DNA of 64,000 nt from Escherichia coli (GTDB lineage: Bacteria; Pseudomonadota; Gammaproteobacteria; Enterobacterales; Enterobacteriaceae): the NCBI RefSeq assembly GCF_046105845.1, contig NZ_CP151004.1; one strand, 5' to 3'. Below, piece by piece: positions 42,826-48,564 of this stretch. Within the stretch, counting starts at the first letter, position 1. Each line of letters starts with the position of its first letter. The position numbers were made by a program, and so were the translations under genes. The notes beneath the pieces are model-generated. The model saw only the letters and a program-made list of their open reading frames with translations. It made no database searches and was not told the origin of the DNA.

Positions 42826-43001
42826 CAATTGCCTTAATAAAATTAAATGTTTAATTTCAATTTGTTAGCAATATAGTCATGAAGTAATCCGCAAATATGC
42901 GTTTCAGTTAACGTTTCAGGCAATGTTTCACCGCGTTTCATTGCAACAATTATGAAACAAGACTAAACCCAATATTCGGTTTCTTAACTTTGCGGTGCGC
43001 T

Positions 43002-44588
43002 ATGGCACATCCACCACGGCTGAATGACGACAAACCGGTTATCTGGACGGTATCTGTAACGCGCCTGTTCGAGCTGTTTCGCGATATCAGCCTCGAGTTT
43101 GATCACCTGGCGAATATCACCCCTATTCAGCTTGGCTTTGAAAAAGCGGTGACCTACATCCGCAAAAAACTGGCAAACGAACGGTGCGACGCCATCATCG
43201 CTGCTGGCTCTAACGGCGCATATCTTAAAAGTCGCCTGTCAGTGCCGGTTATTTTGATTAAACCGAGCGGCTACGATGTGTTACAGGCACTGGCAAAAGC
43301 CGGAAAGCTCACCTCTTCTATCGGCGTTGTCACTTATCAGGAAACTATTCCGGCGCTGGTGGCGTTTCAAAAAACCTTTAATTTGCGCCTCGACCAACGT
43401 AGCTACATTACCGAAGAAGACGCGCGCGGGCAGATTAACGAGCTGAAAGCTAACGGCACCGAAGCGGTGGTCGGCGCGGGGCTGATTACCGATTTGGCAG
43501 AAGAAGCCGGAATGACCGGAATTTTTATCTATTCCGCCGCCACCGTGCGCCAGGCATTCAGCGATGCGCTGGATATGACGCGCATGTCGTTACGCCATAA
43601 CACTCACGATGCCACCCGTAACGCCCTGCGTACTCGTTACGTGCTGGGCGATATGCTCGGTCAATCACCACAGATGGAACAGGTGCGGCAGACTATTTTG
43701 CTGTATGCCCGCTCCAGTGCGGCGGTGTTGATTGAGGGGGAAACGGGGACGGGCAAAGAGCTGGCGGCCCAGGCGATTCATCGGGAATATTTTGCCCGCC
43801 ACGATGCGCGACAGGGCAAAAAGTCGCATCCGTTTGTTGCCGTCAACTGCGGGGCGATTGCCGAATCGCTGCTGGAAGCAGAGCTGTTTGGCTATGAGGA
43901 AGGGGCGTTTACCGGCTCGCGACGCGGAGGACGCGCCGGACTGTTCGAAATTGCCCACGGCGGCACGCTGTTTCTTGACGAGATAGGCGAAATGCCTCTG
44001 CCATTGCAGACTCGGCTGTTACGAGTGCTGGAAGAAAAAGAGGTCACTCGCGTCGGCGGGCATCAGCCTGTTCCGGTGGATGTGCGGGTCATTAGCGCCA
44101 CTCACTGCAATCTGGAAGAAGATATGCGGCAAGGGCAGTTTCGCCGTGACCTGTTTTATCGGCTGAGTATTTTGCGTCTGCAATTACCGCCACTGCGTGA
44201 GCGAGTGGCGGATATTCTGCCACTGGCGGAAAGCTTTTTGAAAGTGTCTCTGGCTGCGCTCTCCGCCCCGTTTTCTGCCGCCTTACGCCAGGGGTTACAG
44301 GCAAGCGAAACCGTGCTGGTGCACTACGACTGGCCGGGCAATATTCGAGAACTGCGCAATATGATGGAGCGACTGGCGCTGTTTTTAAGTGTGGAACCGA
44401 CGCCGGATTTAACGCCGCAATTTTTGCAGCTGCTACTGCCGGAGCTGGCGCGCGAGTCGGCGAAAATTCCCGCTCCACGCTTACTGACACCACAACAGGC
44501 ACTGGAGAAATTTAAAGGCGATAAAACAGCAGCGGCGAATTATTTAGGCATAAGCCGGACGACGTTCTGGCGGCGGCTGAAAAACTGA
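43002..44588 (+). CDS. prpR: Sigma-54-dependent transcriptional activator of prpBCDE
   Basis: 528 aa from ATG 43002 ([15 protein letters not shown]...); AAA+ domain with GETGTGKE Walker A and GAFTGS; C-terminal HTH. Confidence 0.94.
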
Positions 44589-44688
44589 ACTGCCGAATGC
44601 AGCGCGAACGCTTTATCCGGCATAAATTTCAATAGATGATGATCACCGATAAACTTACGCATCGGGGATGTTTACATAGGTTTCAGAA

Positions 44689-44964
44689 TTACTTCTTCTT
44701 ATAAATATTTGCCGTGCCGTGGATCTTATTGTCAGTTTGACCAGAGGTCAGCACCAACACATCAGCCCCTTTTTCATCGGCTTTTTTGATCAAATCTTCT
44801 TTCGCATCTGCGGTCGACATTTCATTACTGGTTGAAATATCACCTATTTTTTCATATTGCGATTCAACCTTTTCAAATTCCGCTTTGGTCATTAATTCTG
44901 CGGCATAGACATTGGTAACGGCAAACGCTAACGCACCGACTAACATTTTAGAGATTATTTTCAT
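44689..44964 (-). CDS. yahO: Small periplasmic DUF1471-family protein YahO
   Basis: 91 aa with signal peptide ([21 protein letters not shown]). Confidence 0.85.
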
Positions 44965-45110: not shown

Positions 45111-45782
45111 ATGATGCAGTTAGTTCACTTATTTATGGATGAAATCACTATGGATCCTTTGCATGCCGTTTACCTGACCGTAGGACTGTTCGTGATTACT
45201 TTTTTTAATCCGGGAGCCAATCTCTTTGTGGTAGTACAAACCAGCCTGGCTTCCGGTCGACGCGCAGGGGTGCTGACCGGGCTGGGCGTGGCGCTGGGCG
45301 ATGCATTTTATTCCGGGTTGGGTTTGTTTGGTCTTGCAACGCTAATTACGCAGTGTGAGGAGATTTTTTCGCTTATCAGAATCGTCGGCGGCGCTTATCT
45401 CTTATGGTTTGCGTGGTGCAGCATGCGCCGCCAGTCAACACCGCAAATGAGCACACTACAACAACCGATTAACGCCCCCTGGTATGTCTTTTTTCGCCGC
45501 GGATTAATTACCGATCTCTCTAACCCGCAAACCGTTTTATTTTTTATCAGTATTTTCTCAGTAACATTAAATGCCGAAACACCAACATGGGCACGTTTAA
45601 TGGCCTGGGCGGGGATTGTGCTCGCATCAATTATCTGGCGAGTCTTTCTTAGTCAGGCGTTTTCTTTGCCCGCAGTGCGTCGTGCTTATGGGCGTATGCA
45701 ACGCGTTGCCAGTCGGGTTATTGGTGCAATTATTGGTGTATTCGCGCTACGCCTGATTTACGAAGGGGTGACGCAGCGGTGA
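45111..45782 (+). CDS. yahN: LysE/RhtB-family amino-acid exporter-like membrane protein
   Basis: 223-aa polytopic membrane protein. Confidence 0.85.
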   Translation: MMQLVHLFMDEITMDPLHAVYLTVGLFVITFFNPGANLFVVVQTSLASGRRAGVLTGLGVALGDAFYSGLGLFGLATLITQCEEIFSLIRIVGGAYLLWFAWCSMRRQSTPQMSTLQQPINAPWYVFFRRGLITDLSNPQTVLFFISIFSVTLNAETPTWARLMAWAGIVLASIIWRVFLSQAFSLPAVRRAYGRMQRVASRVIGAIIGVFALRLIYEGVTQR

Positions 45783-45798
45783 GCAGATAATTTACTCT

Positions 45799-46044
45799 CT
45801 ACGTAATCAACCTGATTTGCCGAATCCCGACCATCGGCGATGATAGCCCCCGTAATGCGTGGTCCTTATTTCCGATAAGTTTACTTGAGTCTTTAGCTTC
45901 CCATTTCAGCCCACTCTCCCCTGTGTGGGCTTTTTTCATTGCTCTGACCCGTCCTGAATAGCCAAACAATGGCAATGTTCCACTTTGCAGGGATGATAAT
46001 AAGGGGATCTGATTCAGAAGAGTTTTGAAAAGTTGGACCGCCAT
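45799..46044 (-). CDS. yahM: Small uncharacterised protein YahM
   Basis: 81 aa from ATG 46044 (MAVQLFKTLLNQ...); length and position match K-12 yahM as I recall; no recognisable domain. Confidence 0.5.
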   Translation of the reverse strand: MAVQLFKTLLNQIPLLSSLQSGTLPLFGYSGRVRAMKKAHTGESGLKWEAKDSSKLIGNKDHALRGLSSPMVGIRQIRLIT

Positions 46045-46456
46045 CGAGGCCTCGAACCCCGTACCATACAACAATCCTGGTTGTCGTCTGCTCTTCCTGA
46101 TGAGCTAATGGCGGTTTTTGATATGAGCCTTACAGCATATTTTCTGTCAGGCTTGAGTGCGATGCGTAAGATACAGAAAAGACCCCACACAAACATGATG
46201 GAATTATGATTTTTTTCATATGAATGTCAACCCACACATTCACAAAACATCTGCATGAGATCATTTTTTATACACCGTATAGCTGCGAAACCACTGCTGA
46301 TGCTTTTTTAAGCGAAGTGTCGCCGATCACAACAAAATATCGGCGAAAAAGGCGGTGGAATGCCATTTGGCATACGGATATACAGATGAAATGATCACCT
46401 GCTTTGCGATTCACTCTCTGGTGGAATAACAACTCGCAGGTGGACCCCTTTCTGAA

Positions 46457-47272
46457 CTAAAGAGTGTAGCGGATTTTAACGTGCTTATTTACAGGATAAT
46501 ATCTGTCACCTAATTCCTGCACTCTATTAGATATCCATTGATTTAATCGCGCATCATCTCTGTATGTTTTTACGTCCAGAACAGAGAGCAATAACATCAC
46601 CAGTGATTCAGGAAAAACAGGGTAGATATTTTTTAAGTGTAATAATAATCCATGCGCAAGCGCCTGCTTAATGGGTGCGTCGGTCTCCGGAATAGACGAC
46701 ATTTCGCGAAGCCATTTTTCCACATGCATACACTCTTTCCCTTTAGGGAAAAGTCTCAGCAAAGGCATATGGTGTTCAAGAAGAATACATTTGCAATCTG
46801 TTCGCACTGAATCGATAAACTGCACTAATTTCTTAAGCCCGGTAAAGCGTCCAGCCTGCACGTTTGCTTTAATATCAAGAAACGCATCATCCTGGTCATA
46901 TACCCAAACTGTCCCTTTTTGATTTTCAAGTATGCGAAAAACAAACTTAACCGGGTGATCAGGGTAATCCATCCAGTCATAAAACCCAGGGAAATCACTA
47001 AACTGCACATTTATGGTGAGTGCGTTATCGTCTGACCACTCACAGTCTCGTACGGCAGCCATGAGATGAATGAGTTTGTCATCATCGACTAAATCATCAC
47101 GACAATCATAAGGATAATCATAATATTGTTTAATCAAAACCTTGAATATATCGACACAGGAAACCAGGGAGCTTTTGATATCCTCTGGTAACTGATTGTT
47201 TTTAACCGTATTAAGTATGCTTTGTTGCGTATATGGCATCAAATTATTGTGCGGAGCTTTTAATGATATCAT
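46457..47272 (-). CDS. yahL: Uncharacterised protein YahL
   Basis: 271 aa; AT-rich ORF; no recognisable motif. Confidence 0.8.
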   Translation of the reverse strand: MISLKAPHNNLMPYTQQSILNTVKNNQLPEDIKSSLVSCVDIFKVLIKQYYDYPYDCRDDLVDDDKLIHLMAAVRDCEWSDDNALTINVQFSDFPGFYDWMDYPDHPVKFVFRILENQKGTVWVYDQDDAFLDIKANVQAGRFTGLKKLVQFIDSVRTDCKCILLEHHMPLLRLFPKGKECMHVEKWLREMSSIPETDAPIKQALAHGLLLHLKNIYPVFPESLVMLLLSVLDVKTYRDDARLNQWISNRVQELGDRYYPVNKHVKIRYTL

Positions 47273-47437
47273 CGCGATCTCTCTTAAATAAAAATAAACG
47301 TCGCAGATAATAAAGCTCTGATTAAACCAGGCACTATCAGAAATCGCTCATAACTAACGTGTGAAGTATTGTGTCCTGGAGGGAGTTAATTTAACAATTT
47401 GAATTTACGTTATAGGTTTTACTGCTACTTTGATATT

Positions 47438-47479
47438 ATTTCGCTCTCCTTAACTAAAAAGTTAAGTGGAGAGCGAAAT
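47438..47479. other. Stem-loop downstream of yahK
   Basis: ATTTCGCTCTCCTTAAC-TAAAAA-GTTAAGTGGAGAGCGAAAT, 36 nt after the yahK stop. Confidence 0.35.
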
Positions 47480-47514
47480 TAATATGTTAAACCACAGGAT
47501 ATTTATTAATTTTT

Positions 47515-48564
47515 TCAGTCTGTTAGTGTGCGATTATCGATAACAAAACGATATTTCACATCACCACGCAGCATTCGCTCATAGGCTTCATTAATTTGAT
47601 CGGCCCGAATCATCTCTATATCAGCCACGATGCCATGTTCGGCGCAAAAATCGAGCATCTCCTGAGTTTCTGGAATGCCGCCAATCATAGAGCCGGCTAT
47701 CGCGCGGCGTTTCATGATCAGGTTGAAAACTTCCGGCGATTTATGCGGTGTCGCAGGCGCACCAACCAGCGTCATGGTGCCATCGCGCTTCAGCAAGGTG
47801 GTAAAATCGTCGAGATTATGTGGCGCAGCTACTGTATTCAAAATGAAATCGAAACTCTTCAGATGAGCCGCCATCTCATCGGCATTGCGTGAGTTAACAA
47901 CTTCATCGGCCCCCAGGGCTTTTGCCGCTTCGCGTTTTGACTCCGAAGTGGTAAATGCCACCACATGTGCCCCCATCGCGTGGGCCAGCTTAATCCCCAT
48001 ATGTCCCAGACCGCCGATGCCAACCACGCCCACTTTTTTACCCGGCCCGGCCTGCCAGTGACGTAGCGGCGAGTATGTGGTGATCCCTGCACACAATAAA
48101 GGAGCCACCGCCGCCAGCTGCTCTTGCGGGTGACGAATACGCAGAACATATCGCTCATGAACGACGATCTGTTGTGAGTAGCCGCCCAGCGTATGGCCCG
48201 GTTCGTCCGGCGTCGGCGAGTTATAGGTGCCGGTCATGTGATCACAGTAGTTTTCCAGCCCGTCTTCACACTCTTCGCAATGTTTACAACTGTCGACAAT
48301 GCAGCCGACACCGACCAGATCGCCCGTCGCATGTTTTTCTACCTGATCACCAACGGCTACCACACGCCCTACAATTTCATGGCCCGGCACGCAGGGATAA
48401 ACCGTCCCCGCCCACTCGGAACGGACCTGGTGGATATCGGAATGGCAGACGCCACAGTAAGCGATTTCAATTTTGACATCATGCGGTCCCGGTTCACGCC
48501 TGGTAATATCCATCGGTTCCAGCGGTTGTTTAGCGGAATATGCACCAACAGCTTTGATCTTCAT
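47515..48564 (-). CDS. yahK: NADPH-dependent aldehyde reductase (Zn-dependent MDR alcohol dehydrogenase)
   Basis: 349 aa; Zn ligand motif GHEIVGRV and Rossmann GVVGIGGLGHMG; AGGAG RBS. Confidence 0.93.
   Translation of the reverse strand: MKIKAVGAYSAKQPLEPMDITRREPGPHDVKIEIAYCGVCHSDIHQVRSEWAGTVYPCVPGHEIVGRVVAVGDQVEKHATGDLVGVGCIVDSCKHCEECEDGLENYCDHMTGTYNSPTPDEPGHTLGGYSQQIVVHERYVLRIRHPQEQLAAVAPLLCAGITTYSPLRHWQAGPGKKVGVVGIGGLGHMGIKLAHAMGAHVVAFTTSESKREAAKALGADEVVNSRNADEMAAHLKSFDFILNTVAAPHNLDDFTTLLKRDGTMTLVGAPATPHKSPEVFNLIMKRRAIAGSMIGGIPETQEMLDFCAEHGIVADIEMIRADQINEAYERMLRGDVKYRFVIDNRTLTD

Follow-up and report, generated by a model that had tools for sequence, protein, structure and literature searches.

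The yahM-yahL block of Escherichia coli probably combines an old orphan gene with a conserved tRNA-like RNA gene beneath a mis-called yahM

The stretch analyzed here, a 64,000-nucleotide window of Escherichia coli DNA (contig NZ_CP151004.1), contains at 45799-47272 a block that runs exactly from the stop of yahM to the start of yahL, two genes that are both on the list of wholly uncharacterized E. coli K-12 genes. We propose, with a probability of roughly 60%, that this block consists of two unrelated things: an old orphan gene, yahL, together with its spacers, and a yahM that has been mis-called over a conserved tRNA-like RNA gene. The element under selection would be this 81-nucleotide (nt) RNA gene, which would be transcribed from a strong sigma-70 promoter of its own with a leader of 73 nt. 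An earlier note on the same DNA had treated yahM and yahL as one AT-rich ORFan pair; we abandon this pairing, as yahM overlies the tRNA-like gene and the antisense strand of the 3' untranslated region (UTR) and terminator of the neighboring gene yahN. At 95-99.5% identity, the block has a match in 5,176 of the 5,426 complete E. coli genomes, RefSeq labels yahL and yahM in near-identical genomes, and the positions of the two open reading frames (ORFs) in the earlier note agree with the ORF list and the RefSeq names.

The proposal is carried by the conservation of the element. All 81 nt are identical in E. coli, a cryptic clade, Escherichia sp. E1V33 and E. albertii, whereas 12, 19 and 22 differences are found in the 127 nt that precede the element (Fisher p = 0.002, 5e-5 and 9e-6); in E. 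albertii, this amounts to no difference in the 81 nt against 22 in the 127 nt of its own leader (Fisher p = 9e-6). Over these comparisons, which outside E. coli cover four lineages only, variable columns number 1 of 81 in the element and 35 of 127 in the leader (p = 6e-8). The similarity begins and ends at the tRNA termini, stopping within a few bases of the CCA. Within E. coli, the element is present in 5,168 of the 5,426 genomes and identical in 4,821. Among the 348 non-identical genomes is O157:H7, with a single change, U68C, that converts a G.U pair of the T stem into G-C; probably all 348 carry this change, which would make it the sole common polymorphism in E. coli. An exact 32-mer of the element was found in Escherichia only, among 100,044 species representatives. 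Two individual loci are recorded here: in O157:H7 (L035, 1501-1640), a TAG at codon 12 of yahM occurs together with the pairing-preserving U68C, and in strain DETEC-S792 (L036, 2501-2620), IS1 is inserted after nucleotide 62 of the element.

ARAGORN calls the element on the minus strand (46114-46034) as an 81-nt 'tRNA-Ser(gga)'. By minimum free energy (MFE), it folds into a cloverleaf whose acceptor stem (CCGCCAU/AUGGCGG) has 7 bp. U8, A14 and G18G19 in the D arm, UUCGA in the T arm, a discriminator U and an encoded CCA (UCCA at the 3' end) are retained, everything that folding and processing as a tRNA would require. In these features, and in its 4-bp D stem and 5-bp T stem, it resembles a canonical bacterial tRNA (RF00005). 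It differs from one in its length and in an aberrant anticodon arm: the loop reads CAGGAUU, with A at position 33 and U at position 37 (or is a 6-nt loop in the MFE structure), leaving neither U33 nor a purine at 37, and a connector of 5 nt (or 2 nt) stands in place of the single nucleotide 26. Such an arm would be unable to decode, and the RNA, once transcribed and trimmed by the tRNA-processing machinery, would be a non-decoding tRNA mimic.

Upstream of the element lies a near-consensus sigma-70 site, the -35 hexamer of which is invariant from E. coli to E. albertii. In K-12, a massively parallel reporter study confirmed a promoter and transcription start site for yahM and found it to be repressed by IHF (bioRxiv 10.1101/2025.05.13.653802), and the yahM locus has been found to be induced on epithelial adhesion. 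We infer that the promoter of the reporter study is the site at 46203-46230 and that the tRNA-like gene is transcribed from it. Between promoter and element, a leader hairpin is predicted; in E. albertii, one double change from G-C to A-U can be read in it from the alignment.

The element is also the sole part of the block that resembles phages or plasmids; a phage BLAST of the whole block matched 89 nt of tRNA-like sequence only, and there is thus no evidence of yahL as phage cargo. On a plasmid segment that resembles a prophage, a 'tRNA-OTHER' between tRNA-Ile(CAU) and tRNA-Arg(UCU) is 85.7% identical to the element, and the corresponding slot, between Q or a DNA methylase gene and the stx or lysis genes, shows 76-85% identity in phiP27, mEp460, TL-2011c, PhiR49_2 and Yersinia phage YeP1. 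The annotation of phiP27 itself names ileZ and argO; the slot is that of argN, a name used for phage 933W, in the ileZ-argN-argO cluster. Literature searches on ileZ and argN returned nothing usable. Along its full length, the element is 76-86% identical to seven phage or plasmid copies and has the acceptor stem, D arm, T arm, U73 and CCA in common with them, and across seven family members the acceptor and T stems are 98.8% paired. On this same acceptor/D/T body, the phage genes carry other anticodon arms, with Arg-UCG, Pro-UGG or Gln-UUG anticodons or an 11-nt loop; among them is an 81-nt form with a remodeled arm that ARAGORN does not call, and these 81-nt alleles have the remodeled arm AGACGACA...GUUGU in common with the chromosomal element. 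Three loci (L018 2501-2577, L019 2501-2577 and L020 2502-2579) bear Pro-UGG, Arg-UCG or Gln-UUG on one body, which looks like anticodon-arm swapping.

Unlike its phage counterparts, the window element is chromosomal and solitary, without ileZ or argO, has its own sigma-70 promoter and occupies a fixed syntenic site beside yahN across Escherichia species; it lies between yahL and yahN, with no phage genes nearby, and is not part of a prophage tRNA cluster. The remodeled phage type was found in 14 viral contigs as two alleles, and the chromosomal anticodon-arm variant in none of 2.9 million viral contigs, which argues that the chromosomal copy has not been re-seeded by phages. The element is homologous to the tRNA in the variable middle position of the lambdoid cluster and has a common origin with it. 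The prophage-end pseudo-tRNAs of E. coli K-12, ptwF and pawZ among them, likewise tie tRNA-derived sequence to phage DNA. Such pseudo-tRNAs are partial duplicates of the 3' end of a host tRNA, made by integration; the element, in contrast, is full length, bears a promoter, copies no host tRNA and is strongly constrained.

As for function, we put forward one tentative idea, which we regard as possible though doubtful: a genus-wide, promoter-driven tRNA mimic under yahM would, processed like a tRNA but not decoding, engage a tRNA-binding activity as its decoy, sponge or substrate, and the argN slot of phages would hold exchangeable versions of this body, each with another anticodon arm, in a host-phage contest. 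The partner might be an anticodon nuclease or other toxin, a modification enzyme or an aminoacyl-transfer reaction. If yahM is indeed mis-called over a tRNA-like RNA, the annotation of the best-studied genome would be corrected, and 'y-ome' promoter work, including that on the IHF-repressed yahM promoter, would be redirected to an RNA product. Additionally, a non-decoding tRNA body common to the chromosome and to the Q-to-stx/lysis cluster would provide a new handle on the odd middle tRNA of these phages. The tRNA-like element itself is annotated nowhere hitherto.

Comparison of the yahM sequences suggests that yahM is most likely not a protein gene. Its 81 amino acids are counted from an ATG, and the mechanical ORF list starts further out, at a TTG at 46074. 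This ATG is formed by nucleotides 71-73 of the tRNA-like element, in the acceptor strand, and a Shine-Dalgarno (SD)-like GAGG lies in the T-loop; the two together mimic a ribosome-binding site, which is probably why gene finders call yahM. The remainder of the ORF would be a variable spacer followed, in antisense, by the 3' UTR and terminator of yahN. It is the 3' half that overlaps this UTR (45783-45937) on the opposite strand; the UTR is 89.5% conserved in E. albertii versus 83% for the yahN coding sequence, and the ORF looks conserved at the nucleotide level because of that overlap. Against the K-12-like, B2 (a phylogroup label that we assume for the strains compared) and L009 alleles, yahM shows no synonymous difference in any comparison and 5, 1 and 5 nonsynonymous differences, respectively, all small numbers. 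Indels of +4, -1 and -1 disrupt the reading frame in the cryptic clade (L007/L014), where no gene is called; E. albertii and E1V33 (L012/L015) have unrelated DNA in place of the N-terminal half; codon 12 is TAG in O157:H7; and the ORF is truncated in ED1a- and 83972-type strains. Apparent 'distant' YahM homologues (53-65% identity) were rejected as frameshifted translations of error-rich assemblies or real frameshift alleles.

An overlap of the convergent yahM and yahN transcripts has been seen by RNA sequencing (PMC12288877). The hairpin with U6 at the end of the yahN 3' UTR is the probable intrinsic terminator of yahN; our simple terminator scan skipped it because its loop exceeds 8 nt. The yahN 3' UTR (45783-45937, plus strand), which lies antisense to yahM, may itself be a 3'-UTR-derived small RNA. 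Rfam matches in the region to naRNA4, a toxic-sRNA terminator and a snoRNA were all sub-threshold and were not retained.

In composition, yahL stands apart. With 39.3% GC and 39.0% GC at third codon positions (GC3), it is the lowest of the 52 window ORFs of at least 150 amino acids (mean 52.3%, standard deviation 5.0; z = -2.6; mean GC3 56.8%), and neither its GC content nor its codon usage matches the core genome. The spacer between yahL and yahK is the most AT-rich piece (31.8% GC), and 46000-47514 as a whole has 39.4% GC, a value equally low in just 1.8% of 1.5-kb windows. With 46.7% GC (z = -1.1), the yahM ORF is unremarkable, and the value rises to 56.8% in the 81-nt element at its start, so that the AT-rich unit extends over approximately 46120-47514, not 45799-47272. 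The description of the block as AT-rich in the earlier note hence stands for yahL and the spacers but not for the yahM ORF, and its contrast with the flanking genes stands against yahK (53%) and prpR (56%) but breaks down at nearby yahO (38.8%). As yahO is as AT-rich as yahL, yet conserved and of a known family, low GC by itself is not diagnostic in this neighborhood.

The gene yahL is a real protein gene under purifying selection. Its ratio of nonsynonymous to synonymous substitution rates (dN/dS) is 0.18 against the 88%-identity lineage (L009) and 0.17 against the 80%-identity lineage (L007), with no internal stops and with dS of 0.32-0.65. Against L007, dS is 0.65 for yahL and 0.68 for the neighbor yahK, which suggests that yahL was present in the common ancestor with the cryptic clade and has since been inherited vertically; its acquisition would be old rather than recent and would predate the split between E. 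coli and that clade. A word-indexed search of 5.8 billion clusters found relatives of YahL in Escherichia only (98, 88 and 80% identity), along with fragments and two sequences, P0009 and P0010, that were rejected, one being a chimera and the other a frameshifted yahL. One further full-length relative, P0025 (E = 4e-13), a paralogue from a rare E. coli strain, came from an exhaustive HMMER profile search of 1.84 billion representatives; it is 24% identical to YahL over 248 residues (BLASTP). A second homology search, from P0025, found P0025 itself and no other relative.

The gene is restricted to E. coli/Shigella and to at least one cryptic clade of Escherichia (80-88% protein identity, in genomes labeled E. 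coli). Its distribution is patchy: it is present in approximately 4,009 complete E. coli genomes and missing from about 26%, and it is absent from E. albertii, from E1V33 and from all non-Escherichia proteins searched. Approximately 1,167 complete E. coli genomes (22%) match the block only up to window position 46443 (query 1-645). In one of the yahL-less strains, SF-173, an 835-bp segment composed of yahL plus 13 bp and 6 bp is precisely missing, yahM adjoins yahK in the annotation and the AT-rich yahL-yahK spacer is kept. No direct repeats were found at this junction; insertion and deletion were therefore judged from phylogeny and dS, and the phylogeny makes the SF-173 state a deletion. In E1V33, yahK abuts the tRNA-like promoter, and in E. 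albertii, which lacks both yahK and yahL, yahJ does so. The slot upstream of this promoter is accordingly variable, being occupied by yahJ directly (E. albertii), by yahK directly (E1V33 and yahL-less E. coli) or by yahL-yahK. There is no mobility signature beside yahL, and neither an integrase, repeats nor a donor was found. We envisage yahL as an old, foreign-looking orphan that would have entered the yahN-yahK/yahJ slot before the E. coli/cryptic-clade split and would later have been cleanly deleted in one large set of E. coli genomes. In strain H16, IS1 is inserted between yahL and yahM. The view of the earlier note that the two genes are foreign-looking, lineage-restricted and of a function invisible from sequence fits yahL; it does not fit yahM, with its ordinary composition and non-conserved ORF.

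The earlier note had found no recognizable motifs in either protein, and our searches bear this out: family searches of YahL, YahM and P0025 (Pfam, NCBIfam, PADLOC and PHROGs) gave nothing above threshold, sub-threshold matches to SDH_protease, WWE_5 and DUF2931 were ignored, and a PDB sequence profile search with YahL gave no match at E <= 10. A first AlphaFold model of YahL, built from four near-identical sequences, was useless (predicted local distance difference test (pLDDT) 50.5), and Foldseek against the PDB returned noise only. With P0025 in the alignment, a model of moderate confidence was obtained (pLDDT 67.8, predicted template modeling score 0.65), with residues 1-25 disordered, N-terminal helices, a five-stranded sheet and a C-terminal helical bundle; the fold search with this model gave no informative match. 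We envisage YahL as a real, soluble alpha/beta protein that is kept at very low expression and under moderate purifying selection, and our weak guess is that it is of island origin and may serve, in low copy number, in regulation or host interaction.

Expression of yahL has been reported to lie below 1 part per million, with an unexplained transposon fitness effect (PMC5053530), and in vitro selection (SELEX) with RNA polymerase gave peaks within yahL (PMC5493296). This fitness effect could arise through polarity on, or silencing of, the RNA gene that lies just downstream. Silencing of yahL by H-NS is plausible; no H-NS chromatin immunoprecipitation data were found in the papers mentioning yahL. 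With 39% GC in a 52% background, restricted distribution, near-zero expression and RNA polymerase binding in vitro, yahL resembles horizontally acquired genes silenced by H-NS, and it differs from them in having no mobility genes or repeats, an old residence and purifying selection. The restriction of YahL has already been described: together with YdjO and YjfZ, it is among the 'conserved signature proteins' of E. coli/Shigella and is used there as a quantitative PCR marker (PMC11057252). Our searches agree on this restriction but differ in that yahL is not universal, about one in four complete E. coli genomes lacking it, and occurs in cryptic clades as well, both of which concern its use as a marker.

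Several points weigh against the interpretation of the block as an old orphan next to a mis-called RNA gene. Rfam RF00005 does not match the element at E <= 1 (in 3.5 kb) or E <= 10 (in 171 nt), in a test in which the flanking phage tRNAs score 62-68 bits, and neither the Prokaryotic Genome Annotation Pipeline (PGAP) nor tRNAscan annotates it; it could on these grounds be a degenerate relic. The z-score of its fold is only -1.9. The chromosomal copies, being invariant, provide no covariation, and the covariation of the phage family amounts to one compensatory pair, which 61 of 500 shuffles reach. Transcription of the 81-nt RNA from the promoter at 46203-46230, its processing and its function are predictions, and the horizontal origin of yahL would rest on composition and distribution; a de novo origin or fast divergence would give a similar picture. 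An inert fossil, namely an argN-type tRNA decayed from an ancient lambdoid prophage or integration, would agree with the non-canonical anticodon arm and the missing calls; the closest, 81-nt phage versions also look degenerate, with a broken T-stem pair in one allele, and the IS1 within the element in one strain has no obvious consequence. The conservation would then reflect a DNA-level role (yahM promoter, 5' UTR or protein-binding site) or chance. We consider this unlikely, as a neutral relic should diverge like its flanks, and yet the element stays constant precisely up to the tRNA termini, with the CCA and every nucleotide of the tertiary core in place. In addition, its one common polymorphism leaves pairing intact, a near-consensus promoter has been conserved alongside it and viral contigs offer no source for re-seeding. 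Quite unlikely, in our estimation, is that yahM is a real, young micro-protein gene of E. coli proper and the tRNA-like structure a regulatory element at its 5' side that sequesters SD and AUG or provides an RNase P-processed 5' end. The ORF is indeed intact in most E. coli genomes and named as a protein by NCBI, the placement of AUG and GAGG within the fold could gate translation, and the locus is transcribed and regulated; however, every informative pairwise comparison shows 5 differences, none of them synonymous, the frame is lost to nonsense in the O157:H7 lineage and to frameshifts in ED1a-/83972-type B2 strains and the cryptic clade, E. albertii and E1V33 have no ORF beneath a perfect tRNA-like element, and the antisense overlap with yahN accounts for the nucleotide conservation.

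The interpretation closest to the earlier note, in which yahM and yahL form one horizontally acquired, H-NS-silenced AT-rich islet with two orphan proteins, is likewise distinctly improbable. The AT-rich, lineage-restricted yahL and spacers, the lack of motifs in both ORFs, the extremely low expression of yahL and the SELEX peaks, which are expected of AT-rich DNA with spurious promoters, are all compatible with it. It does not account for the GC content of yahM and of the element at its start, for the lack of conservation of yahM as a protein or for the different distributions (yahM/tRNA-like in 5,168 genomes and E. albertii; yahL in about 4,009 and not in E. albertii), and the co-divergence of yahL with yahK speaks against a recent arrival. 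That YahL is a leftover effector or accessory protein of type III secretion (ETT2/eip-associated) appears very improbable to us. This idea comes from P0025, which is encoded in a 30% GC islet near genes for an invasin/EaeX-like protein, a TPR_3 class II chaperone and an SseC/SipB-family translocator, a gene set that matches the published, ETT2-associated eip locus (PMC7058095); in addition, the N-termini of YahL and P0025 (approximately 25-30 residues) are rich in S, T, N, Q and P, free of acidic residues and modeled as disordered, a composition typical of secretion signals but not specific to them. However, this is one rare locus with two insertion sequence (IS; transposase) fragments between P0025 and the invasin, chaperone and translocator genes, so the linkage may be accidental, neither a known effector family or fold nor a chaperone-binding motif turned up, and yahL itself lies far from ETT2. 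The islet (L005, 10001-20828) is situated downstream of yjiH in a rare E. coli and comprises P0025, the IS fragments, the EaeX-like invasin gene and eicA/eipB-like type III translocator genes; its chromosomal site differs from the published selC eip locus.

Table 1. Features of the yahM-yahL block and its surroundings, in window coordinates
Feature	Position	Strand	Basis and remarks
prpR	42990-44588	+	ORF list
yahO	44689-44964	-	ORF list; DUF1471 periplasmic protein
yahN	45111-45782	+	ORF list
yahM ORF, 81 aa	45799-46044	-	Annotated; probably no conserved protein-coding gene
Hairpin + U6, probable yahN intrinsic terminator	45908-45937	+	Fold z = -2.7; weak Rfam terminator-type match; conserved in E. 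albertii
81-nt tRNA-like gene	46034-46114	-	ARAGORN, cloverleaf MFE, conservation, phage homology
Leader hairpin between promoter and tRNA-like gene	46126-46153	-	MFE of leader + tRNA-like gene
Sigma-70 promoter, TTGACA-16 nt-CATAAT, 11/12 matches	46203-46230	-	Best site in region scan
Hairpin 3' of yahL (TCGCCGAT...ATCGGCGA), 8-10 bp	46321-46346	-	Fold z = -2.7
835-bp segment (yahL + 13 bp + 6 bp)	46444-47278	.	BLAST junctions; precisely missing in SF-173
yahL coding sequence, 271 aa	46457-47272	-	ORF, lowest GC, dN/dS, Escherichia-only homologues, AlphaFold model
yahL-yahK spacer	47273-47514	.	Composition, direct sequence reading; kept in yahL-less SF-173
yahK	47515-48564	-	ORF list

The gene order of the window is the reverse of that in K-12 (Table 1). 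Past yahK, the window carries an autoinducer-2 (AI-2)-type ATP-binding cassette transporter, and K-12 has yahJ at that place. The hairpin 3' of yahL is kept even in the cryptic clade L007, though the adjoining spacer has diverged there. The promoter of yahL presumably lies within the yahL-yahK spacer. Right after the yahK stop, at about 47437-47476, this spacer contains a long near-perfect inverted repeat (TTTCGCTCTCC...GGAGAGCGAAA), which is probably the yahK terminator. On the other side of the block, a REP-like element lies on the minus strand in the gap between prpR and yahO (44564-44622), where Rfam naRNA4 scores a sub-threshold 27 bits against a gathering score of 59.5.

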